From IMG/VR virus record IMGVR_UViG_3300044501_000030: DNA of 49,461 bases; one strand, 5' to 3'. The translations under genes and the position numbers were made by a program. Positions 1-23,837 of this stretch are shown here, piece after piece; within the stretch, counting starts at the first letter, position 1, and every line of letters begins with the position of its first letter. The notes beneath the pieces were generated by a model. It was not told the origin of the DNA. It did not search any database and saw only the letters and a program-made list of their open reading frames with translations. The DNA comes from a virus.

Positions 1-127
1 AGCACCTTCCGGATGTTGCTCGCCGCAAGACCGTTCTCATCCTCCCGCAAGAGCTGCTCATGATACCGCCAGAGACACTGTCGCACGGCCGCTGCCGCAC
101 ATTCCTTCATGTTGTCGTAGGCCGGTG
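1..127. repeat. Terminal direct repeat, copy A (identical to 49335-49461); circularisation overlap
   Basis: Read directly: 1-127 matches 49335-49461 base for base. A 127-nt overlap is a typical assembler k-mer overlap. Confidence 0.95.
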
Positions 128-1376
128 CAAAGCGATTCGACTGCTGCTGGAGCAGTGAGGCCGTCGTGAACGCCGGGGTGCGAGAGCCGAGCACCTGACT
201 TGGTCGGGGGGTGTTCAGCTCGTTCACCCCGACCCGACGTTCTGCCAATGAGAGGGTGATACCTTCACTTGCCGTGGCGGACGGATAGATTTCTCCAAGC
301 TGCATCGCGACGATATCTTCTCTGGGGTTGCCCTGCGTTTCGATGTTTCGCCCTGCCCACGCCGCGATCGTTGCTTCGTCGATCGTCCCCGCTTTGGTCG
401 CAAAGAACCGCATGTTCGCGAGCTTCATGTTGAGCATGCGATCGTTGTGCTCTTCGGTGAGTTCCTCTTGGTAAGGTTTCAACATCTCCAACACGCCGAG
501 GCCGTTCAGCAGGTGGGCACGGGGATGGTAGACGCAATAGTTGATCGGCCGCGTGTCGTAGGGCGCATATCCGCGCCACGCGATCTTTCTAGAAGTACGG
601 TCCCATATGCAGAGGATCTCCTCATCGAAGCCGTCGTTGTCGTAGTCGAACGTGACGAAGCTCATGTGCATCTCGTAGAGCTTCGCGATCATATCCATAG
701 TCGTCGACCGACCTAAGGCTTCCCGGCGTTGGCGCACATTGTCAATCGAGGAGACGGCTTGGAGCCCCTTCAGCTTCCAGCGCTCCTCTTTGTTCTCGAC
801 GCGGCCATACTCGCGCAACTCGCCCTTCGTCATCCACATGCGGATGTCGACCCATGGGAGTTCATCCAAGATCGCCCCCGCCCCACCGGGTGCCAGGAAG
901 TCTTCGATCGGCACCACGCGGATGCGTGGCCCATAGTCGATCACCGTCCGCGTGGCGGTCCGTTTGATGATGTGGACGAACGGGGTGTAGAGCACGCCCG
1001 TCCCAAGTTGGACGGCATCCAGGAACGCATGATTACAGGCGGCGCGAAGCCCAAACTCGTTTCCGATACCCCATTCGGTAAAGTCTTGGAGCCCCTCAGC
1101 GGCGGCATCCATCTGAGGAAACTCATTGGCACGACGCGTTGGGCGGACCGTCAAGATCGGAGCCACCGCGAAGATATTGGACATCACCTGCGCGTAGAGG
1201 GCGTCTGCCGCGATCGCACCTAAGGTGATTTCGATGTTCGGGGAGTTCTCGATCGGGACGTTCCGATAGGGGTTCTTCGGCACACCTTCGTACTGCCGCA
1301 AGCACTCCAACCAGTTCTGCTCTTGCTGGTAGCGCGCCGAGTAGGCCATCTCGATCTCCGTCGAGAGGTACTGCAT
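1..1376 (-). CDS. Portal protein, N-terminal part (gene wraps across the window edge and continues in 48887..49334)
   Basis: The minus frame with codons at 3-5, 6-8 and so on has no stop from 1376 down to base 1 (checked codon by codon). ATG at 1376-1374 gives MQYLSTEIEMAYSARYQQEQNW... The frame is continuous through the overlap into track ORF 48887..49444. Joined length is 1824 nt (607 aa). It sits directly upstream of the scaffold and capsid genes. It is absent from the ORF track because it runs off the edge. Confidence 0.75.
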   Translation of the reverse strand, partial: MQYLSTEIEMAYSARYQQEQNWLECLRQYEGVPKNPYRNVPIENSPNIEITLGAIAADALYAQVMSNIFAVAPILTVRPTRRANEFPQMDAAAEGLQDFTEWGIGNEFGLRAACNHAFLDAVQLGTGVLYTPFVHIIKRTATRTVIDYGPRIRVVPIEDFLAPGGAGAILDELPWVDIRMWMTKGELREYGRVENKEERWKLKGLQAVSSIDNVRQRREALGRSTTMDMIAKLYEMHMSFVTFDYDNDGFDEEILCIWDRTSRKIAWRGYAPYDTRPINYCVYHPRAHLLNGLGVLEMLKPYQEELTEEHNDRMLNMKLANMRFFATKAGTIDEATIAAWAGRNIETQGNPREDIVAMQLGEIYPSATASEGITLSLAERRVGVNELNTPRPSQVLGSRTPAFTTASLLQQQSNRFAPAYDNMKECAAAAVRQCLWRYHEQLLREDENGLAASNIRKV

Positions 1377-1444
1377 GAGCCGGACGTCGTTGTCCTCCGA
1401 TTGCCGAAGCGGCTCGACGACAGGGATGCGCTGGAAGAGGCGCA

Positions 1445-1849
1445 CTAGCGGTAGCCTCCAATGATGTACTGCACGATCACGCTCCCTGCCGAGAGGTTCT
1501 CGACACGACACCAGGTTGTGGTTGTCTGGATGTTCCACGCGAGGAACATCCCCCCGGTGTTGAGCTGCACCTTCGGTGCGGTCGTGCTCTCTAGCTGCAC
1601 ACGAAGCACGACGCCGGTGAGGTTTGTCACCGAGGTAGCTAAGAAGACCACGAAGGCGATGCGCTGCATCTCCCCAAGACGGGTGTTCAAGTTGAGTGCA
1701 GCGCCAGCCGTGATCGTGAACTCCCCGCCAGGGAAGACATCGGGCAATCGCAGGCTGTGTTCGTAGGACCGGTCGCCGAAGACTGATCCCCCATCGGCTT
1801 CCACGGCCAACGCGAGTTGGACATGCCGAAGGCTAGCCGACGGTGCCAA
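1445..1849 (-). CDS. Hypothetical protein (134 aa, beta-rich)
   Basis: Track ORF, co-oriented and overlapping the upstream ORF by 17 nt. No motif recognised. Confidence 0.55.
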   Translation of the reverse strand: MAPSASLRHVQLALAVEADGGSVFGDRSYEHSLRLPDVFPGGEFTITAGAALNLNTRLGEMQRIAFVVFLATSVTNLTGVVLRVQLESTTAPKVQLNTGGMFLAWNIQTTTTWCRVENLSAGSVIVQYIIGGYR

Positions 1850-4379: not shown

Positions 4380-7300
4380 TCATGGCGTCGCCGTGGGGGT
4401 CGGCGTTGGGGTGGGCGTGGGTGTTGCGGTACGTGTCGGAGAAGGTGTTGGCGTGATCGTTGGCGGCGTCACGGTAGGCGTCGCGGTCCTGGTCGGGGTC
4501 GCAGTAGGTGTCGGTGTGGCCGTACTCGCGGGGGTTGGGGTCTCACCGGGCGCAGGCCCCGCACACGCATAACTCGCGCCCATCATCACGGCCTGTGACC
4601 CAAAACTTGACGCCGTGCAGGGATGCGTATTCGGCGCACAATCCACACACGGCCCAAAGGAACCATTCGCGGCATGACCAAACGTGGCTTTGATATTCGC
4701 GAGTGTTTCTGCTCTCAGCCAGCGCAGCAGATATCCACCACCCCAGCCCAGCGCCCAGCTTTCGACCTGGTTGTCGAGAATCTCCAAATTCGTGAGATTC
4801 GTAGACGTTGGGATATTGATGCCGGCGGTCGCATGCCCACGGCTGATATTCGCCTCCAGCTTGACCGCGGTGCTCGCGAGCGCCGTCCGTACAGTGATAC
4901 CATAGGCTGCCAGCGGCGGTGTGGTGCAGGTGCTCGCTGCGCAGTCGCCATCGACATGGCAGAGATCACCTTCGGCCGTTCCGCCCGCACAGAATCCCGT
5001 GCGCTCCAAATAGTTGTGATGAATGTTCGTTCTGTCGGCCGCCAACAGACAAATATCACCGATCCCACTGGCGGTGGTTCCCTGTGGGTTCGTCCATCCG
5101 GAATTCGTGAGCGTATTATCTGCGATAATGTCATCCGTACTGGTAGTCACGATGATCCCGCATACACCACTACGATCGACATGATTCCCAGAGACCACAG
5201 ATTGATTGCCTGAGACGGTGATGCCCATATCCTGGCCACCGATGATGACATTATTGGTGATCTGACATTGCCCGCTCGAGCAGGATATGCCATCTGCCCA
5301 TGGGTACCAGATGCGGTTTTCCATTATGCGCACGCCTGGCGCATTACCCTCGATCTGGATGGGGTAGTTCGGATGATTCTGTGTCGTTTCATACAAGGCT
5401 CCCGCGGCAGGAATCACCCGGTTGCCTTGAAGATCAAACCAAAGAAACGCGGAGAGCGTGATGCGGCTGGATGTTGCAGAGGACCATTGGCCGAGAAGAA
5501 CACGATAGATCACATACCTCGTGTTAGCGACCGGTTCGGGCAAGGGGAGATACGTGGTGCGATCATACCAGCCGTCGACCCACATCTCATCGGCATCCTC
5601 GACGAATCGCACAACGGCGAAGGCATTGCCGGTATCTGTGTAGACCAGATCGCCCGGAAGGACATGGCTGGTCACGAAGTTGGGACCGCCTGTAGCGAGA
5701 GCATCCACAATCTTCGTGCCAGGGAAATAGGTAACAGCCACGCCACTCACCGCGCGCACCGGAAGCACGCGAATCGTATCGTTAGCCGCCATGCCACTCA
5801 GATCCACAGTCGGATCGTCGAGCGTGTTCTCTGAGTAGGTCGCATACTGGCCCCCACTCACCTTGCGTCGTGTATAGGGCCATCCGACAAGAAACGTATT
5901 GTCCACAATCTGGAGATCGCGGGACGGCTCCTCGCCGGCCGTGCCGGTGTCGCCAATGACTCCATCAGTCAAAAAACGAAAGAGATTATGGCGCACGGTC
6001 ACGGATTGGCTTGCACGTTGAATAAGCACACCGCGCCCGGCGCCATCAGCATCGCCGGACAATATCGAGTCCTCGATGCTCGCATCGTGGATCGCATCGA
6101 ATGTAACGCAGCTTCCCCCCGCGCGCGCGTCGCAGTTAATGCGTGCAATCCGTATGTCGGTGAGAATCCCCCCGGTGGCCGCAATACCTGTCGCTCCAGA
6201 ATGCGTCCCCATAATCAACCCAAGGTCTTGAATCGCCACATTCGCGGGCGTGATGCCACTGACCAATGTCGGTTGCGAGAGCAAGGAAGTCGCATCCGTC
6301 CCATCAAGTACGGAGGCTGTTCTCCCCTCACCTTGGAAGAGACAATTGGAACAGGTGATGCGGACACCAGAGCCGGCGGGAGTCCCCGTCGCGGACGTGC
6401 CGGTATAGGTCCCAGCCGGAAAGAAAATCACTCCTCGGCCGGCGGTGCGCACGGCATCGACTGTCGCTTGGATCGCTACGACATCATCGAGGCCATCATT
6501 CGGGATGGCGCCGTAATCACGTACATTGAATTGTGGTGAGACCGAACGGAGGTGTGCCGACCCATCGCGCCATTGCAACCGCCCGTCATCCATCACCTGC
6601 GCCGTGCCAGTGCCGGCGGGGAGGTCGGTCGTACCGCCGTCCGGAAAGGAGAAGTCGCGGCAGATGAACTCCTGCCCCGGCGGATCATTGTTGGAATCGC
6701 GGTATTCGATGTGCTGATCAGGTCGGCACTCGAAGATTTCAAAGTTGGTGTAGCCTCCTTGCGCGTTGGTGACGGGGATCATGTCCGCGTCGCCCACGCC
6801 GGACAGAGTGAGGCCGTTCGCGACCGTGACGCATCCGCCCTCACCCGAGAGATATTCGTTTGCTTCATTACACTTCGTGTCGACGACGCTCATGTTGCTG
6901 ATCGTCCCGCTCACGTCACCGGCCACCGCAGCAGAGATCACGCCCGCAGAACTCACACCCATGCCGCCGGTGCCCGTCACCGCCACCGTGCCGTTCGCGT
7001 CCGGCCAGTTGATGTCCTTCACACCGCCAATCGAAAAGGCAGGTCCGTTCACCCGCACACCAATCGCGTTGATGCTGTCGACGAACGTGAGCGTGTGCCC
7101 GCTGACGCCACCGGAGAAGCACGTCCCGCTAAAACAATCCCCGACCGCAGTGATATCCCCGAGCGCAGCGGTGGCCGTGGGCGTGGGCGTTGGACTGAGC
7201 GTCGGCGTGGGGGTGGCGGGCAGACAGGCGAGCACATCGGGACAGCCGCCCACCATGCCTGTGCCACCTCCTCCTGCCGTCATCGTTGGGGTCGGGGCGG

Positions 7301-7388
7301 TGCCCTCGGGTGTAGGCGTCTCGAAGATTTGTGGCAGCGCCACAGCGGGGAGCAACAGGAAGACCACCACCAGAAGGAGAGTACGCAT
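4380..7388 (-). CDS. Secreted right-handed beta-helix / pectate-lyase-superfamily-like glycanase candidate (1002 aa) with PT linkers
   Basis: Signal-like N-terminus MRTLLLVVVFLLLPAVALPQ. PT-rich linkers occur after the signal and at the C-terminus. FNVRDYGAIPNDGLDDVVAIQATVDAV...GVIFFPAGTY matches the N-terminal signature of pectate-lyase-3-type beta-helix proteins. Later repeats have NxxI/GN-type periodicity. Confidence 0.65.
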   Translation of the reverse strand: MRTLLLVVVFLLLPAVALPQIFETPTPEGTAPTPTMTAGGGGTGMVGGCPDVLACLPATPTPTLSPTPTPTATAALGDITAVGDCFSGTCFSGGVSGHTLTFVDSINAIGVRVNGPAFSIGGVKDINWPDANGTVAVTGTGGMGVSSAGVISAAVAGDVSGTISNMSVVDTKCNEANEYLSGEGGCVTVANGLTLSGVGDADMIPVTNAQGGYTNFEIFECRPDQHIEYRDSNNDPPGQEFICRDFSFPDGGTTDLPAGTGTAQVMDDGRLQWRDGSAHLRSVSPQFNVRDYGAIPNDGLDDVVAIQATVDAVRTAGRGVIFFPAGTYTGTSATGTPAGSGVRITCSNCLFQGEGRTASVLDGTDATSLLSQPTLVSGITPANVAIQDLGLIMGTHSGATGIAATGGILTDIRIARINCDARAGGSCVTFDAIHDASIEDSILSGDADGAGRGVLIQRASQSVTVRHNLFRFLTDGVIGDTGTAGEEPSRDLQIVDNTFLVGWPYTRRKVSGGQYATYSENTLDDPTVDLSGMAANDTIRVLPVRAVSGVAVTYFPGTKIVDALATGGPNFVTSHVLPGDLVYTDTGNAFAVVRFVEDADEMWVDGWYDRTTYLPLPEPVANTRYVIYRVLLGQWSSATSSRITLSAFLWFDLQGNRVIPAAGALYETTQNHPNYPIQIEGNAPGVRIMENRIWYPWADGISCSSGQCQITNNVIIGGQDMGITVSGNQSVVSGNHVDRSGVCGIIVTTSTDDIIADNTLTNSGWTNPQGTTASGIGDICLLAADRTNIHHNYLERTGFCAGGTAEGDLCHVDGDCAASTCTTPPLAAYGITVRTALASTAVKLEANISRGHATAGINIPTSTNLTNLEILDNQVESWALGWGGGYLLRWLRAETLANIKATFGHAANGSFGPCVDCAPNTHPCTASSFGSQAVMMGASYACAGPAPGETPTPASTATPTPTATPTRTATPTVTPPTITPTPSPTRTATPTPTPTPTPTATP

Positions 7389-7669
7389 CAGTCTTTCCTC
7401 CGAAGGGCCATCACTGCGTCGATCGTCTGTTGATCGCTTTGGAGGCGGACCGTGGTCGCCGTGGCCGCGTGCGCGGCGGCAGAGGCGGCTGCGGCGGAGG
7501 CGGTGGCTGCCGCACGGTTCAGTTCGATCAGTTCGGCTAAATGTCCATTCATCTGGATCGTCAACGTTGCCACGCGACGCGCGTTCACGAGGGCCGTAAC
7601 CAACGCAGCAAAGGCCATCAACGTAGGCGGCATCGCGACGATTAGCGCAATCCAGATGTTCTCAGGCAT
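7388..7669 (-). CDS. Small membrane protein (93 aa; MPENIWIALIVAMPPTLMAFAALVTALVNARR...), holin-like by position only
   Basis: Track ORF 7388..7756 trimmed to the ATG at 7669 (GAGAGGGGAAAGA upstream). It has one N-terminal hydrophobic helix and an Ala-rich tail. Its stop overlaps the start of the 1002-aa ORF. Confidence 0.5.
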   Translation of the reverse strand: MPENIWIALIVAMPPTLMAFAALVTALVNARRVATLTIQMNGHLAELIELNRAAATASAAAASAAAHAATATTVRLQSDQQTIDAVMALRRKD

Positions 7670-7895
7670 TCTTTCCCCTCTCGGTGATGTGGTGGAGGCG
7701 GCGCAGCACGACTTCGCGGGTATTTGTTGGCCGTTTCTGCCACACGACGGGACCACACGAACCGCAGCGTCGACAATGACTGAGTTCGAGAATCACCTCG
7801 GACTCTGGCACGTCTTCGCCACAAGTGACGCAGCAATACTGGAGATGGCTGTACTTCAGCGCCGTTGCTCGGCCACCCGCACTTCCTGGCTTCAT
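7662..7895 (-). CDS. Zinc-ribbon-like small protein (77 aa; CCVTCG...CRRCGSCG)
   Basis: 3' part of track ORF 7662..8057. ATG at 7895 forms an ATGA overlap with the TerL-nuclease stop. It has two CxxC pairs. Confidence 0.45.
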   Translation of the reverse strand: MKPGSAGGRATALKYSHLQYCCVTCGEDVPESEVILELSHCRRCGSCGPVVWQKRPTNTREVVLRRLHHITERGKNA

Positions 7896-8539
7896 GCCCA
7901 TCTCCGGTTGGCGCGGCCGAAGGCTTCGAGCCGGCCTTGGGCGATCGCGGGAGGCACGTTGGCCCGTTTCAAGTAGGTCGCGAGCCCTTCGAGGGACGCA
8001 TCTCGGCTTCGTTGCAGTGACCGCCGAGGGAGCGCGCGCACTGCTGAGGCGAGACAATCGATGATGTCTTTCAACCGCAACTCGGTTTGCGGAAACGTGA
8101 GGATCGCTTTGCGCAGCTCGTCGTGCTGCTTCTGGATGAAGAGCTTGCCAAAGGCGAGCATCGGCTGAAGGACCATGCGGATACGCATGTCCTTATCGAT
8201 CCGCGTCGACTGGGCCACGCCTTGGAGCGGGAGGCGGATGTTCCGGCTCTTCAAGATGATCTGCGCCGTCCCCGCGAAGAGTTCTTGCATAGCGTTCGAC
8301 TCACAGCCGAAGGACCGCATCTGTGGGTAGCGTTGGCCCAGTTCCCCAATCTTCTCCACGAACTTGTCGATCGAGACCCGATCGTGCCACGCCTCCAAGA
8401 CGAACGCCCGGCCGAGGACATCGCCCCCGACGATGGTGATCGCCTGTGAGGAGCGTTGCTTCTTCAGGTGCTGATTCTTGGTCCCAGCCGGATCGATGAA
8501 GCCCACGATCGTCAAGGATTTGAGGTCGAAGGTGGTCAC
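7892..8539 (-). CDS. terL: Terminase large subunit, C-terminal nuclease domain encoded as a separate ORF (215 aa)
   Basis: RNase-H-like terminase nuclease motifs in order: IVGFIDPAG, FGCESNAMQ, DIIDCLASA. There is no ATPase motif in this ORF. Confidence 0.7.
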   Translation of the reverse strand: MTTFDLKSLTIVGFIDPAGTKNQHLKKQRSSQAITIVGGDVLGRAFVLEAWHDRVSIDKFVEKIGELGQRYPQMRSFGCESNAMQELFAGTAQIILKSRNIRLPLQGVAQSTRIDKDMRIRMVLQPMLAFGKLFIQKQHDELRKAILTFPQTELRLKDIIDCLASAVRALPRRSLQRSRDASLEGLATYLKRANVPPAIAQGRLEAFGRANRRWA

Positions 8540-8793
8540 GTACGCATGTCCCCAATCTCGTCGTGGAGGGCAAGTGAGAGGTATGTGATCTCCTCTGACC
8601 GTGTGACACCTGCGCGCAGCCTTCCCAGTTTCAGTTCTCCGTTGGACAACTCATGGACGTAGACCACAAGGAGGTGTTTCGTCGAGTCAATCTCTTCTTG
8701 GCTGAGCAAGTCTTCAAGCGCCTGACGTGCGGACCATGTCTTGTTGTCGTCCGACTTCTCAATCAACGGGACGACTTTGAGATGCTTCGTCAT
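8536..8793 (-). CDS. Hypothetical protein (85 aa) inserted between the TerL halves
   Basis: Track ORF with 4-nt ATGA overlaps on both sides. Hand-counted GC of 60-nt lines is 47-57%, lower than its neighbours. Confidence 0.6.
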   Translation of the reverse strand: MTKHLKVVPLIEKSDDNKTWSARQALEDLLSQEEIDSTKHLLVVYVHELSNGELKLGRLRAGVTRSEEITYLSLALHDEIGDMRT

Positions 8794-9026
8794 GTGATCT
8801 CTAACGTTCTCATCTTGCGGCGCAGGCGTTCACGACCGATGCCGAGCATCCGCGCCGTGCGGCTCTGGTTCCCCTTCGCGGCACGAAGGGTCTGCTGGAT
8901 GGCGTCGCGCTCCACGGTGCGGAGGATAGCACGAAGATCCACGCGACCGTAGACCAAAAGCTCCGCACCGACGTCGAGCGGCGGACGCCCCGGCCCGCCT
9001 CTAGGCACGTAGACGAAGGGCAGCAT
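8790..9026 (-). CDS. Fis/NtrC-C-terminal-type HTH DNA-binding protein (78 aa)
   Basis: ERDAIQQTLRAAKGNQSRTARMLGIGRERLRRKMRTLEI is a textbook Fis-family (HTH_8) helix-turn-helix. Confidence 0.7.
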   Translation of the reverse strand: MLPFVYVPRGGPGRPPLDVGAELLVYGRVDLRAILRTVERDAIQQTLRAAKGNQSRTARMLGIGRERLRRKMRTLEIT

Positions 9027-10326
9027 ACCGACCGACTGTCTTCCGCAGCGTCTCGTAGGTCTCGGCGGTGAGCGGCATGCCGTACAGACTCTCAGCGTCC
9101 GGCATGGGGCCAGGGCTGTTCATCATCTCCGCCAAGGCGAGATCGCGCCCATCCTCCGTGAACCGCAGTTCACCATTTTCGATCGCGAACGTGCGGAGAT
9201 CGCTTTCTTGAAAGTCCGTAAGATCAGGATTCGCGGCGGAGTTCATGTAGAGCAAGTTGAACAAAATCCCCATCTCTTTTCGGAGACGATCGATCGTGCC
9301 TCCATCGCCATTTGGATCGAAGTGCTCGGGCCAAATGATGTGGCCCTCCTCGATCACCGCGCGCGTCACGACGTGGACAGAGGGATCGTTTTCGATGATG
9401 TAGGCGTTGACGTCGTAGATTGTCCACCGCGTCGAGATGTTGAGTTCGATACATCCCGGCTTACCAATCAAGGCGCGGCTCGCGACGTGCCAGTCGAGTG
9501 CCGATTGCATGACGACGGGAGAGTTTGCAGCCTCCCATGTGGCGATGTCGTCCTTCGCGAGCGCACTTGGGTGTGTCCCGGTCGTGGCCCCACCAACGCC
9601 AGAGGCCCAGATGGTAGGGTCCGGCCACGGTCGAGGACCGTAGGGATAGGGGAATGTGAGCGCCTTCGCGTTCCAATCCCGCTTCGGCGGTGTGCGCCAG
9701 AAGCACTCCGGCCAGAGCGCACGAAGGAGTTGGTTTCCATCGGCGTGCGCCTGGATCACCGAGAGGTGAGACATCGCGCGCAGCTCCGTCTCCCCCGCAA
9801 GGAAGATCCGCTGATCCAATCCGCGTTCGTTCGGAAAGTAGATGTTGTGGTCCTTCGGCTGGATGACAACGTGGAGTGGCCAACTGCGCCCCACGATAGT
9901 TGATTTGCCTGATTCACGTGGTGCCAGGATGAGGACACGCCACGGCTCCGGTCGCGGGGTCTGCACTTCTTGGCACAGTTCTTTGTGGAAGGTCGTGAAG
10001 AACTCGTAGCCGAGGACGACTTTGGCGAACACGTAGAGATGGCGTTCCGCTTTCGTGCGAAACGACGTGACCCAACTATCCTCTGCGGTTGTGGCGCCTG
10101 CCTGACGGACTTGCTCGTTTGGTTGGACGACCAACTCCACGCGTGGGGGGACACCGTCTGGGAAGAGCGCCGCGTCCTCAGGGAGAAGATCGTATCGCGC
10201 TCTCGGCGCCTTCTTCCCAAACACCCGGTCGGTCGCCCAGCCACGGACAGCGGTGACTGCGGCGTCGCCCCGTGCAGTGGCGACTTCCGCAAGCACTTTA
10301 GCAAAGCGAGATTGCTGGCTCATCAA
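9001..10326 (-). CDS. terL: Terminase large subunit, N-terminal ATPase domain ORF (441 aa)
   Basis: Walker A LILAPRESGKST. It also has a TerL-type coupling motif ISTRWTIYD and a downstream ...NLLYMNSAANP... linker. It ends where the nuclease domain normally begins. Confidence 0.75.
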   Translation of the reverse strand: MMSQQSRFAKVLAEVATARGDAAVTAVRGWATDRVFGKKAPRARYDLLPEDAALFPDGVPPRVELVVQPNEQVRQAGATTAEDSWVTSFRTKAERHLYVFAKVVLGYEFFTTFHKELCQEVQTPRPEPWRVLILAPRESGKSTIVGRSWPLHVVIQPKDHNIYFPNERGLDQRIFLAGETELRAMSHLSVIQAHADGNQLLRALWPECFWRTPPKRDWNAKALTFPYPYGPRPWPDPTIWASGVGGATTGTHPSALAKDDIATWEAANSPVVMQSALDWHVASRALIGKPGCIELNISTRWTIYDVNAYIIENDPSVHVVTRAVIEEGHIIWPEHFDPNGDGGTIDRLRKEMGILFNLLYMNSAANPDLTDFQESDLRTFAIENGELRFTEDGRDLALAEMMNSPGPMPDAESLYGMPLTAETYETLRKTVGRYAALRLRA

Positions 10327-10907
10327 TCTCCCTCGCGCATCTCTTGCTGGCGCAGTTCGGCAACCACGTCGTCGAGCGCCCGCACCACGATGGGCTCAGG
10401 TGGCGGGGGACTCCATTGAAGTTGGTCGTCGACCACGACTTCACTGTCTTCCACGTGCGTTGATTCCACGTCGATCGGATCGCCGATCTCGTCGCACACC
10501 CGCTGCGCCAGTTGCTTCTGCGCATGCTCGACGGTGATGGTGAGGCTATTCTTCACTCCGTCTTCCGACTTGCGGGGAATCTGGCGATCGAAGAGCATGC
10601 CGGCGGCGGAGAGACGCACGCGGGCATCTTCGGGGTCCGCAAACTCCCCATCGCGCACGCTGCGGATGAAGTCGACGTTGTAGGGGGCATCGCCGAGCAA
10701 CTTGTCCATCGCGTTCTTGACCCCGTAGGTCGTCATCTCCCGCTGGTGCTGCGCGACGAGGGTCTTGAAGAGCGGAGAGGATTTGATGACCGAGATGCGC
10801 GCGGCGTTGCAGTGCAATTGCTTCGCGATCTCGCTGTTCTTCATGCCGGCCGCGACCATGAAGGCCATCAGCTTGTGGTTCTCCGAGAGTTTCGCGGGGA
10901 CGCTCAT
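10323..10907 (-). CDS. HTH protein, small-terminase candidate (194 aa from the internal ATG)
   Basis: Track ORF 10323..11216 trimmed to the ATG at 10907 (ATGA overlap with the upstream ORF). It has an HTH-like MKNSEIAKQLHCNAARISVIKS and a 4-nt overlap with the TerL ATPase ORF. Confidence 0.45.
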   Translation of the reverse strand: MSVPAKLSENHKLMAFMVAAGMKNSEIAKQLHCNAARISVIKSSPLFKTLVAQHQREMTTYGVKNAMDKLLGDAPYNVDFIRSVRDGEFADPEDARVRLSAAGMLFDRQIPRKSEDGVKNSLTITVEHAQKQLAQRVCDEIGDPIDVESTHVEDSEVVVDDQLQWSPPPPEPIVVRALDDVVAELRQQEMREGD

Positions 10908-11341
10908 GCGACGACCTTCCCCCATACAGGGACGGCGGCCGGTCCGTGGTACGTGCGCCGCCGTCCCTTCTTTTTCTTCGGTTGCACCACTCGCGTGGGT
11001 TGCGTCTGCGCGAGAAAACGCACCCGTGCGTTGTGCAACCCCTTGCGGCGTTCGAACTGTGCTAGATGTGCACGGATTGCGCTGCAATCCCACGGTGGGC
11101 CGAGCCATTGGCAGAGTTCGTCGAAGTCTCGCGAGAAGAACCACCGCCGTGCATTCCACCCGTCCATGTTGGATTGCCCCAAGCACGAGAGGGCGTCGGC
11201 GATGACCGCGAGCCAAAGCTTACGCTCAGGGCTGAGCGATGGGGAGGACTCCGGCGTGGTGAGAATGTTCGCTTCGAGCAGCTGTGCCGCCGCGACGTGC
11301 AGATTCAGTCGTGGGTCGCCAGCGTTCCACGCCGGATGCAT
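10904..11341 (-). CDS. Hypothetical protein (145 aa)
   Basis: Track ORF with protein-like composition (…KLWLAVIADALSCLGQ…ARRWFFSRDFDELCQWLG…), translationally coupled to the next gene. Confidence 0.6.
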   Translation of the reverse strand: MHPAWNAGDPRLNLHVAAAQLLEANILTTPESSPSLSPERKLWLAVIADALSCLGQSNMDGWNARRWFFSRDFDELCQWLGPPWDCSAIRAHLAQFERRKGLHNARVRFLAQTQPTRVVQPKKKKGRRRTYHGPAAVPVWGKVVA

Positions 11342-11617
11342 GGGCTGAGCAGTACACCGTTCTGGTGCTCAGCACAAGAGGAACACACTGGACGCACGGA
11401 GGCTGTGGGTGCGTGCCACAGCCGTGGTCCGTGCAGGAGGGGAGGCGAGAGAAGAGAATGCTACGCCGAACGCTTCGGTGCTGTCAAGGGCTTCGCCGTT
11501 CGCTAGAGCAGCACGGGTGGGCAAGAACCATACCACGCGCGAGACGCCATGGAGAGCGACGCAGGACCCTCGGTTGGGGCTGGAGTATCAACTTGGAGCG
11601 CTATGACCCACAGCCGG

Positions 11618-22055: not shown

Positions 22056-23837
22056 ATGACACCCACCCTGGTCAGCAACAACTCGCTCAACTGCGTCGCA
22101 ACGTGCTCGACGAAGACGATCCTCCGGTACAACTTCTTCTACACCAGCCCAGAAGAGTCGGCGAACCTCAAAGCGGGAAGCGCCGCGCACGAAGCACTCG
22201 CCATCTACTTTCGGGGTGGCACCACCAAGGAAAGCCTTCGTGCGTTCCGCAAAGCCTACAAAGCATGGGCGCTGGAGAACATCGATCCCGCGGACAAGTA
22301 CCTCGCACGACTTTCGTATCAGAATGTGCGCCTGATCCTGAAATACTGGATGGAGCGCACCCCGCTCGACGCCTTCCCGTTCACCGTTGAGCCTGAGCAT
22401 GTCGAGGTGAAGTTCTTGTACCCCCTCACGAAGTCGGGTGATCTCGTGATGCAGGGCATCCTCGACGCGGGTCCCGTCCGCGCGCGTCAAGGCGGCGCCG
22501 TTGGCGTGCTCGACCACAAAGCCCAGCCCGTGTGGTCAAAAGTACTAACCCCGCATGGCTGGCGCGCGTTTGGGTCGTTGAGCGTCGGCGATGAAGTGGT
22601 TGGTGTTAACGGTGCGCCAACCAAGGTCGTCGGCGTGTTCCCGCAGGGTGAGCTGCCAACCTATCGTGTCTCGTTCTCTGATGGGGCAGTAACACACTGT
22701 GCAGCGGACCACCTCTGGACGGTGTATTCGTCTTCGGAGAAGTCACGGGGATGGCGCACCTTGCGGCTAGACCAGATCATGAAGCGCCCAACTGACTTTG
22801 CTATTCCAGTGTCAGGACCGATTCAGTTCGAAGCAGACGACGAACTGCCTGTTGAGCCCTACGTACTCGGAGAGGTGACGAAGGCCGGTAAGCAGGCTGT
22901 TAGCCTTATGTGTCCCCACCATAGGTGCTTTATCCCACCACTGTATCTTCGTGCCTCGGTGGAAGCTCGAACCGCTATTCTTCAGGGATTGCTTGACACC
23001 GATGGCAACGTCTACAACGGCCACGTTAGCTTCACGACAGTAAGTAGAAGGATGGCAAAGGACGTCGTCTATTTGGTGAGGTCCTTAGGAGGACTTGCAC
23101 GCTACCGCTTGTCACAAGGGACGAAACAACAAGCCTACAAGGTTTCCATTCGCCTTCCAGCGGCGACGTTGCCATTCCGCTTACCACGGAAACGTGGTGC
23201 GATCGTCGTCAAAGGTCGACGCGCAATCCTACGATTCTTCGAGAAGATCGAAGCCGTCGAGCCTGCCGAGATGCGTTGCATCCAAGTGGAATCACCTGAT
23301 GGGCTCTACGTAACAGACGATTTCATTGTGACGCATAACACAACCTACCAGATCAACGCAGCATGGATCGAAGCGTTCCGGCTTGACAGCCAGATCACCG
23401 GCTACATCTGGGGCCTCGGCCAGCACATCACCGAATCGGTAGAGAGCGGGTACATCAACGCGCTGGAGTTCTCGAAGCTCCCTGGTTTGGAAGACCCAGG
23501 GAGGAAGTGCCGCGATCCACAGCACGGCGGCGTGACCTACGAGGAGTGCCAGCCTCTCCATGTCAAAGCCATGGTGGTAGGGCCGATCGGTCGCACACGC
23601 CACGCTGTGGCGCAGTGGAAGCGCGACGCCATCCGTTTGGGTCGAAGGCTGGAGGCGTTGAAACAAGACTACGCAGACCTGGACGCGCTGCCGAAGGCAC
23701 CGATGGAAGGGACGTTTACAGGCAGTTGTCGGTTCTGCGAATTTCGCCAGTTCTGCCAGACCGGGCGACAACTGGAAAACCTTGACCGCATGCTCGCGAT
23801 AGATGAAGAGCGCAAAGGAAAGGCGGGTGCAGCGTGA
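22056..23837 (+). CDS. Cas4/RecB-like PD-(D/E)XK exonuclease (Fe-S type) interrupted by an intein; the mature extein would be about 320 aa
   Basis: Extein motifs are GILDAG, VLDHK|T (D-x-K-T) and a C-terminal CRFCEFRQFC plus N-terminal Cys (Cas4-type 4Fe-4S ligands). A 273-aa insert lies between K155 and T429. Confidence 0.75.
   Translation: MTPTLVSNNSLNCVATCSTKTILRYNFFYTSPEESANLKAGSAAHEALAIYFRGGTTKESLRAFRKAYKAWALENIDPADKYLARLSYQNVRLILKYWMERTPLDAFPFTVEPEHVEVKFLYPLTKSGDLVMQGILDAGPVRARQGGAVGVLDHKAQPVWSKVLTPHGWRAFGSLSVGDEVVGVNGAPTKVVGVFPQGELPTYRVSFSDGAVTHCAADHLWTVYSSSEKSRGWRTLRLDQIMKRPTDFAIPVSGPIQFEADDELPVEPYVLGEVTKAGKQAVSLMCPHHRCFIPPLYLRASVEARTAILQGLLDTDGNVYNGHVSFTTVSRRMAKDVVYLVRSLGGLARYRLSQGTKQQAYKVSIRLPAATLPFRLPRKRGAIVVKGRRAILRFFEKIEAVEPAEMRCIQVESPDGLYVTDDFIVTHNTTYQINAAWIEAFRLDSQITGYIWGLGQHITESVESGYINALEFSKLPGLEDPGRKCRDPQHGGVTYEECQPLHVKAMVVGPIGRTRHAVAQWKRDAIRLGRRLEALKQDYADLDALPKAPMEGTFTGSCRFCEFRQFCQTGRQLENLDRMLAIDEERKGKAGAA
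22521..23339 (+). mobile_element. Intein (273 aa), apparent class 3 (Ala1, Trp/Cys/Thr signature) with a LAGLIDADG-type remnant
   Basis: Block A is AQPVWSKVLTPHGW and block B is AADHLW. DOD motif ILQGLLDTDGNVY is present. Block F is EMRCIQVE and block G is FIVTHN, followed by Thr+1. GC is lower than in the flanks. Confidence 0.7.

Follow-up and report, generated by a model that had tools for sequence, protein, structure and literature searches.

In this study, we analyzed the terminase locus of the IMG/VR virus record IMGVR_UViG_3300044501_000030 and found that the terminase large subunit (TerL) is encoded by two separate genes, one for the ATPase and one for the nuclease, with two small genes in between, coding for a helix-turn-helix (HTH) protein of 78 amino acids (aa) and for a protein of 85 aa, here named p85. 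The stretch of DNA under study, referred to as the window, comprises 49,461 nucleotides (nt) with an overall GC content of 59.8%, and since the ATPase protein is recorded on a contig of 49,476 bp, the window represents essentially the whole genome of an uncultured tailed phage. Comparison with related loci indicated that the split is old and inherited within a clade of phages, and that the HTH and p85 genes are lineage-specific cargo and not the cause of the split. Very probably, this two-gene TerL goes back to a single split at the base of the clade, and the gap between its halves is a hypervariable slot for cargo genes.

Both halves were identified by profile and structure comparisons. The open reading frame (ORF) of 441 aa matched phrog_38 (terminase large subunit) over profile positions 266–535 with an E-value of 6e-27, though it reached only 14 bits against Pfam Terminase_6N, below the gathering score of 22. 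The ORF of 215 aa matched the consecutive part of phrog_38 (profile positions 546–715, E-value of 3e-16). Structures of the two proteins were predicted with AlphaFold2 (AF2) from alignments of clade members, resulting in a predicted local distance difference test score (pLDDT) of 78.5 for the ATPase and 88.6 for the nuclease. Alignment with VIA-align placed residues 79–366 of the ATPase on residues 2–294 of the TerL of phage PhiV-1 (8dgc_E; Z of 23.5, root-mean-square deviation (rmsd) of 2.6 Å over 259 residues), and the T4 gp17 ATPase was matched with a Z of 19.1. In the same way, residues 2–171 of the nuclease were placed on residues 310–529 of 8dgc_E (Z of 14.4, rmsd of 2.3 Å over 156 residues), followed by the TerL nucleases of G20c, human cytomegalovirus (HCMV) UL89, RB49/T4, P22, SPP1, and Sf6. 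Further structural matches of the halves included T4 gp17, HK97, P74-26/G20c, D6E, Sf6, P22, SPP1, and herpesvirus terminase domains. Since the two halves superpose on residues 2–294 and 310–529 of one and the same chain, the break is located in the interdomain linker, corresponding to residues 295–309 of PhiV-1 TerL. Thus, the alignment to intact TerL proteins that had been suggested in an earlier note on this DNA was carried out, and together with the consecutive phrog_38 parts it bore out the claim of that note that TerL is divided here at the interdomain linker into one gene for the ATPase and one for the nuclease.

In regard to their layout, the ATPase starts with a poorly modelled N-terminal extension (residues 1–78), followed by the additional-strand, catalytic-glutamate (ASCE) ATPase domain (79–366) and a tail (367–441) consisting of a beta-hairpin and three helices, which is conserved in the clade and has no counterpart in the aligned one-chain TerL proteins. 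Among 27 homologues, R137, the Walker A lysine K141, D259, D260, T299, and W301 were invariant, as were L369, D371, F372, R378, and D395 in the tail. The matches to the ATPase and the nuclease are separated by about 27–42 residues in fused relatives, but this stretch takes up about 90 profile positions in the split clade, which indicates that the tail is a clade-specific addition. The nuclease comprises an RNase H-like nuclease domain (residues 1–171) and a C-terminal helical extension (172–215), again conserved in the clade. In 17 nuclease halves of the clade, D16, D158, and D161 were invariant and E80 nearly so; in the C-terminal helices, which are missing from the aligned one-chain structures, L190 was invariant and R191 nearly invariant. 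The assignment of the ORF at 7892..8539 as TerL nuclease in the earlier note is thus supported by the phrog_38 match, the fold, and the retained acidic residues D16, E80, and D158/D161. Only the tail of 75 residues follows the ATPase domain in the 441-aa ORF, so that a complete nuclease domain within this ORF, which had been named as a possible refutation, is not present; the two domains are encoded by different ORFs, with a distance of 461 nt and two genes in between. Apart from that, no second complete TerL was found among the 26 largest ORFs of the window that were scanned. A replication/recombination protein of 593 aa (22056–23837, plus strand) showed several PHROG matches annotated as terminase large subunit, confined to residues 155–280; these are probably intein cross-matches and do not indicate a second terminase.

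The four ORFs are located on the minus strand between 10326 and 7892, as described before, and their chaining by 4-nt and 26-nt overlaps could be read directly from the sequence. The stop codon of the ATPase gene and the ATG of the HTH gene at 9026 overlap by 26 nt, the HTH stop and the p85 start share ATGA (4 nt), and the p85 stop and the nuclease start share GTGA (4 nt). Upstream, the stop codon of a gene for a protein similar to the terminase small subunit (TerS) has one base in common with an ATG at 10323, which is preceded by the ribosome-binding site GAGGGAG. The ATPase ORF had been given as 9001..10326; this ORF exists, but its start is most likely the ATG at 10323 and not the TTG at 10326, leading to a protein of 440 aa, the same length as in its database entry. 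A consensus scan found no promoter-like site inside the four-gene chain and one promoter-like match overall, compared with 0.6 expected by chance, and four terminator-like matches inside the chain were no more than shuffled sequences give.

For the comparison with other phages, related loci were drawn from IMG/VR, JGI metagenomes, GTDB genomes, and GenBank phages and were scored in six frames with hidden Markov models built from the ATPase and nuclease halves. In 22 of 22 distinct related loci holding both halves, these were found in separate ORFs and in the same order. While the gap between the halves amounts to 461 nt in the window, it was −4 nt in L007 (a start/stop overlap), 1, 10, 29, or 60 nt in others, and up to 1332 nt in L017. 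Four relatives with an empty slot (L007, L056, L008, and L005) are split at the same place, and therefore the split is older than the insert. The statement in the earlier note that terL had been split by the two inserted genes thus had to be given up. The members of the clade are metagenomic phages on contigs of about 45–55 kb, and the closest ATPase relatives shared 84% (P0002) and 60% (P0003/P0080) identity with the window protein. Two members with split TerL, L129 (JADFOU010000002.1) and L130 (DAOUCN010000125.1), are located on contigs of 34 kb and 51 kb in metagenome-assembled genomes (MAGs) of candidate division TA06 and Chloroflexota, which may weakly hint at the host range or may be a binning artefact. 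Misassembly or sequencing error was considered and rejected, as the same ATPase protein occurs on five contigs and the architecture recurs in 22 independent loci.

Among 5.8 billion proteins, the 65 nearest ATPase homologues had lengths of 302–518 aa, none of them long enough for a fusion with the nuclease. The only longer ATPase relative was P0066 with 1095 aa, which carries Hint, Intein_splicing, and LAGLIDADG domains. Large in-frame inserts were also seen in the ATPase half of some members (L018:165–3920 and L056:3923–6208 besides P0066), at about profile positions 100 and 256; inteins thus occur in the ATPase gene of these same two-gene terminases. The only match to a GenBank phage was MW202554 with 30% identity, harboring two genes annotated as terminase large subunit with a gene for 62 aa between them. 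The earlier note had also called for a search for related phages with an uninterrupted terL, and such forms turned up only among distant relatives (about 25% identity), which carry both domains in one ORF of about 450–570 aa, and not inside the split clade. About 50 of the 51 distant relatives in which both domains were detected were fused, including all 37 metagenome loci and all IMG/VR loci except L031. In this distant TerL (L031:1699–3347, about 23% identity), two reading frames were observed with a break inside or just after the ATPase core, which may reflect either another, separate split or a frameshift from sequencing.

In a maximum-likelihood tree built from the ATPase domain, 20 split rows and four rows whose fetched piece does not cover the region formed one clade without any fused row, with a support of 100/99. 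The split locus L001 / MW202554 was placed as the sister of the split clade (support of 94/83), with the fused forms outside. Between clade members, synonymous sites are saturated (synonymous divergence, dS, not computable or >1) and both frames are open; together with the invariant catalytic residues, this points to long-term selection on both genes.

In the 22 loci, the slot is empty or contains up to about four small ORFs, which are mostly unrelated. When 23 same-strand slot ORFs were compared, including the two of the window, only two related pairs were found, namely L012/L014 and L017/L018. A Pfam family could be assigned to 3 of 21 slot ORFs of the relatives, i.e., an RNase_T exonuclease, a Peptidase_M15_4/VanY-type peptidase, and a crAss001_48-like protein, and none of these 21 ORFs matched a homing-endonuclease family. 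In the window, the first cargo gene was correctly recognized in the earlier note as encoding an HTH protein of the Fis/NtrC type, as it matched Pfam HTH_8 over residues 35–73 (E-value of 1e-13, 51.3 bits vs. a cut-off of 22). Against the NCBIfam Fis equivalog, it scored 31.4 bits vs. a cut-off of 99, with the C-terminal HTH alone aligned, and going by its sequence it is not a Fis orthologue; its neighbors in the ESM Atlas are bacterial stand-alone HTH_8 proteins. A single homologue was found (P0068, 68% identity), which keeps the N-terminal residues encoded within the 26-nt overlap, so that translation of the HTH gene probably does begin at the ATG at 9026. An apparent HTH match in IMG/VR (L048) was rejected as spurious, being an alternative frame of a high-GC contig. 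For p85, no match was found in Pfam, PHROG, NCBIfam, or PDB sequences, and no locus with this family in IMG/VR and JGI metagenomes. Its homologues numbered 11 in 1.8 billion representatives, nine of them with 82–97 aa, and its Atlas neighbors are viral hypothetical proteins. A search for the two-gene cassette elsewhere, as suggested earlier, was negative, as neither an HTH nor a p85 homologue appeared in any fetched locus. For P0068 and for the p85 homologue P0069 (69% identity), the only recorded contig is in each case a Logan contig of 4098 nt, and the longest contig is 52,722 nt both for a p85 homologue of 42% identity and for an ATPase homologue of 60% identity. This suggests that the pair, or at least p85, has been kept in the immediate sub-lineage.

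Based on these results, we propose that a TerL of T7/PhiV-1-like fold would be produced from two genes, one yielding the packaging ATPase (440 aa) and the other the RNase H-like nuclease (215 aa). The split would have arisen once at the base of the metagenomic phage clade and been kept since then, and the space between the halves would have become a hypervariable slot taking up small accessory genes. Considering the start/stop overlaps and the fact that no internal promoter-like site was found, the TerS-like gene and the four chained genes would most likely be expressed from one late transcript with coupled translation. The ATPase and nuclease chains may then assemble non-covalently on the portal, with the ATPase tail (367–441) and/or the nuclease helices (172–215) as putative docking or portal-binding elements; as conserved extensions without a counterpart in one-chain enzymes, they are obvious candidates for contacts between the chains or between chain and portal. 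In T3 gp19 and lambda gpA, binding to the portal is mediated by the extreme C-terminus, and by this analogy the nuclease chain would sit at the motor. The nuclease would cut concatemers in trans, both at initiation and at headful termination, and the HTH protein and p85 would be dispensable cargo outside the motor, e.g., a DNA-binding regulator.

Some points weigh against this proposal. Docking by the ATPase tail and the nuclease helices is conjecture, and the two separate polypeptides are predicted from the genes. The ratio of nonsynonymous to synonymous substitutions (dN/dS) is not reliably measurable with saturated dS, and the co-occurrence of the HTH and p85 homologues was read solely from equal contig sizes. 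In L049 (L049:3974–9110), the nearest fetched relative with 48–52% identity, the ATPase gene is followed by genes for an endolysin (phrog_7, 1.7e-22), a membrane/coiled-coil protein, and a lipoprotein-like ORF, and no nuclease half was detected within 4 kb of the ATPase gene or in the whole locus of 9.1 kb. Hence, adjacency of the halves is not universal; in this phage, the slot may be enlarged, or the nuclease gene may have been moved or lost.

Several other explanations were weighed against the inherited two-gene TerL. A recent mobile cassette of the HTH and p85 genes, inserted into an intact terL and thereby splitting it, would fit the absence of the pair from the fetched relatives, the turnover of slot content, and the total GC content of p85, which at 53.5% vs. 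59.8% for the window falls into the 7th percentile of equal-sized windows. The GC content of p85 had been called visibly lower before, and while it is indeed somewhat low in total, the deviation is marginal, and its GC content at third codon positions (0.67) is ordinary, within the range of 0.66–0.82 of the other genes. Neither direct nor inverted repeats flanking 8536–9026 were detected, and no transposase or homing-endonuclease family was found. Moreover, the empty-slot relatives are split at the same position, as are all 22 loci, and the clade-wide terminal extensions on both halves are only sensible for genes separated for a long time; we therefore consider a split caused by a mobile cassette, as implied by the title of the earlier note, most improbable. 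Hardly more credible is that a group I/II intron, an intein (whole or split), or a programmed frameshift rejoins the halves to a one-chain TerL. This possibility is raised by the Jug phages, in which terL split by group I introns is restored by splicing (PMC12880540), by inteins in the TerL of cyanophage Mic1 (PMC7156551) as well as in the ATPase halves of L018, L056, and P0066, and by the 4-nt overlap of the halves in L007, where a frameshift would be geometrically possible. In the window, no Rfam match at E ≤ 1 was obtained in 7300–11500, and the 461-nt gap is filled by two overlap-coupled coding ORFs, one of them for an HTH_8 protein conserved in a relative, so that a group I/II intron was rejected. 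No Hint/intein family of Pfam matched either half, none was seen at the junction, and since the nuclease fold starts about 10 residues from the start codon, with its first beta-strand, carrying D16, beginning at residue 10, there is no room for a C-intein. As a general mechanism, a frameshift was rejected as well, because the gaps reach 1.3 kb with unrelated ORFs in relatives. The view of the earlier note that neither an intron nor a frameshift is involved was thereby supported.

Apart from the origin of the split, the way in which the motor works could differ from our proposal. The ATPase chain alone could be the translocating motor, as in phi29 gp16, with a free-standing nuclease that joins transiently to cut and no stable complex of the two chains. 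Motors of the phi29 type translocate DNA without an active nuclease, and the ATPase gene of L049 has no nuclease gene in its vicinity. On the other hand, the halves have remained together in one operon, with their order unchanged, in 22 of 23 judgeable loci, both carry the conserved clade-specific extensions as possible contact surfaces, and the portal is bound by the C-terminal end in T3 gp19 and lambda gpA, which makes such a motor unlikely. It is likewise unlikely that the Fis-type HTH protein, with or without p85, is a part of the packaging machinery, e.g., a DNA-bending pac-site factor like IHF at lambda cosB. Proteins of the Fis family bind and bend DNA, the gene is translationally chained within the terminase operon, and the pair is apparently kept together in a relative with 68–69% identity; yet it is absent from 22 of 22 fetched relatives with the same kind of two-gene terminase, unrelated genes fill the slot elsewhere, and a separate TerS-like HTH protein is already encoded upstream of the ATPase. 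Finally, the split could be adaptive instead of neutral: two chains joined through the ATPase tail and the nuclease helices would allow a separate dosage of the nuclease and perhaps an escape from host sensors of the Avs1–3 type, and the gap would be a protected landing pad for co-expressed counter-defence or regulatory genes like the HTH and p85 pair. The best structural match for both halves, PDB 8dgc, is Avs3 bound to a one-chain TerL, in which Avs3 reportedly holds on to the ATPase domain as well as to the nuclease domain of the chain. Nevertheless, we regard an adaptive split as quite unlikely.

Altogether, an inherited two-gene TerL with a variable slot between its halves accounts best for the locus, whose features are listed below together with those of the adjacent genes.

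Table 1. Features of the terminase region and neighboring genes in the window (IMGVR_UViG_3300044501_000030).
Feature	Coordinates	Strand	Basis or remark
Portal gene, running off the window end	3–1538		
1002-aa protein between terminase and portal genes	4380–7388	−	Weak tail-spike PHROG matches
93-aa single-pass membrane protein	7388–7669	−	Overlaps the 77-aa ORF by 8 nt
77-aa CxxC...CxxC zinc-ribbon-like ORF	7662–7895	−	ATG overlaps nuclease stop (ATGA)
TerL nuclease subunit, 215 aa	7892..8539	−	phrog_38, AF2 model, and structure alignment
p85, 85 aa, slot cargo gene 2	8536..8793	−	ORF without family match
Fis/NtrC-type HTH protein, 78 aa, slot cargo gene 1	8790..9026	−	Pfam HTH_8
TerL ATPase subunit, 440 aa	9001..10323	−	phrog_38, AF2 model, and structure alignment
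TerS-like protein, 297 aa, GerE/LuxR-like HTH	10323..11216	−	Weak matches only
Sigma-70-like promoter match TTGACA-18-TAGCAT	11458..11487	−	Consensus match only; upstream of the packaging gene chain

The TerS-like protein showed weak similarities to phrog_2538, terminase small subunit (E-value of 0.0018), and to Pfam GerE (E-value of 0.0014), and the ORF at the corresponding position in L049 matched phrog_2538 at 9.5e-7. Beyond the nuclease gene, the chain of overlaps runs on into the 77-aa and 93-aa ORFs. The 1002-aa protein revealed a signal-peptide-like N-terminus and Pro-Thr-rich linkers. The portal gene is located about 6.4 kb downstream of the terminase, behind an island of other genes, while it is adjacent in MW202554. 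Further genes of the window encode a tail-spike-like protein, a helicase, a family A DNA polymerase, a primase, and a candidate major head protein.

In the packaging-motor models of T4, P74-26, HK97, and phi29, the ATPase and the nuclease are covalently linked parts that move relative to each other. A clade with separate chains therefore offers a natural experiment on the contacts required for translocation, portal docking, and the headful cut. In addition, terL serves as the standard marker when phages are detected, scored for completeness, or placed in phylogenies, and a two-gene terL with cargo between its halves will be called truncated or missed. The slot between the halves also merits a search for small accessory genes that are co-expressed.

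In comparison to known systems, the TerL of PhiV-1 (8dgc_E; with the T7 gp19 models 4bij and 4bil) gave the best fold match for both halves and has the same catalytic motifs. Unlike the enzyme of the window, it is one polypeptide with a short linker (residues 295–309), and it lacks the extra tail of 75 aa and the 44 C-terminal residues. The Jug phages and Mic1 resemble the window in that their genomes carry an interrupted terL coding sequence; in their case, the interruption is spliced out, resulting in one chain, whereas the gap in the window encodes independent proteins. The closest parallel in organization are cluster AY Arthrobacter phages, most of which share a two-gene TerL (PMC11920828). 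According to the annotation of phage BillyTP (GenBank PP978841), its genes 2 and 3 encode the ATPase and the nuclease with an overlap of 17 nt, so that here, too, separate co-oriented genes for ATPase and nuclease follow TerS and are coupled by overlap. Since BillyTP has been cultured, such a two-gene terminase works. Thus, two-gene TerL proteins are already annotated in cultured phages, though the mechanism of two-chain motors is unstudied, and the case described here adds breadth and a mapped breakpoint rather than a new principle. Differences concern the position of the genes, which are directly consecutive in BillyTP and separated by a variable cargo slot in the clade of the window, as well as the size of the halves, which are shorter in BillyTP (359 and 198 aa), while those of the window carry terminal extensions of about 45–75 aa. 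Comparison of the window halves with those of BillyTP by BLASTP gave an E-value of 0.25, restricted to Walker A, and hhalign a probability of 0.3%. As no similarity was found beyond Walker A, the two represent independent lineages and probably independent splits, and the clade described here forms a two-gene TerL lineage of its own in sequence, with its breakpoint mapped well and with terminal extensions specific to the clade.

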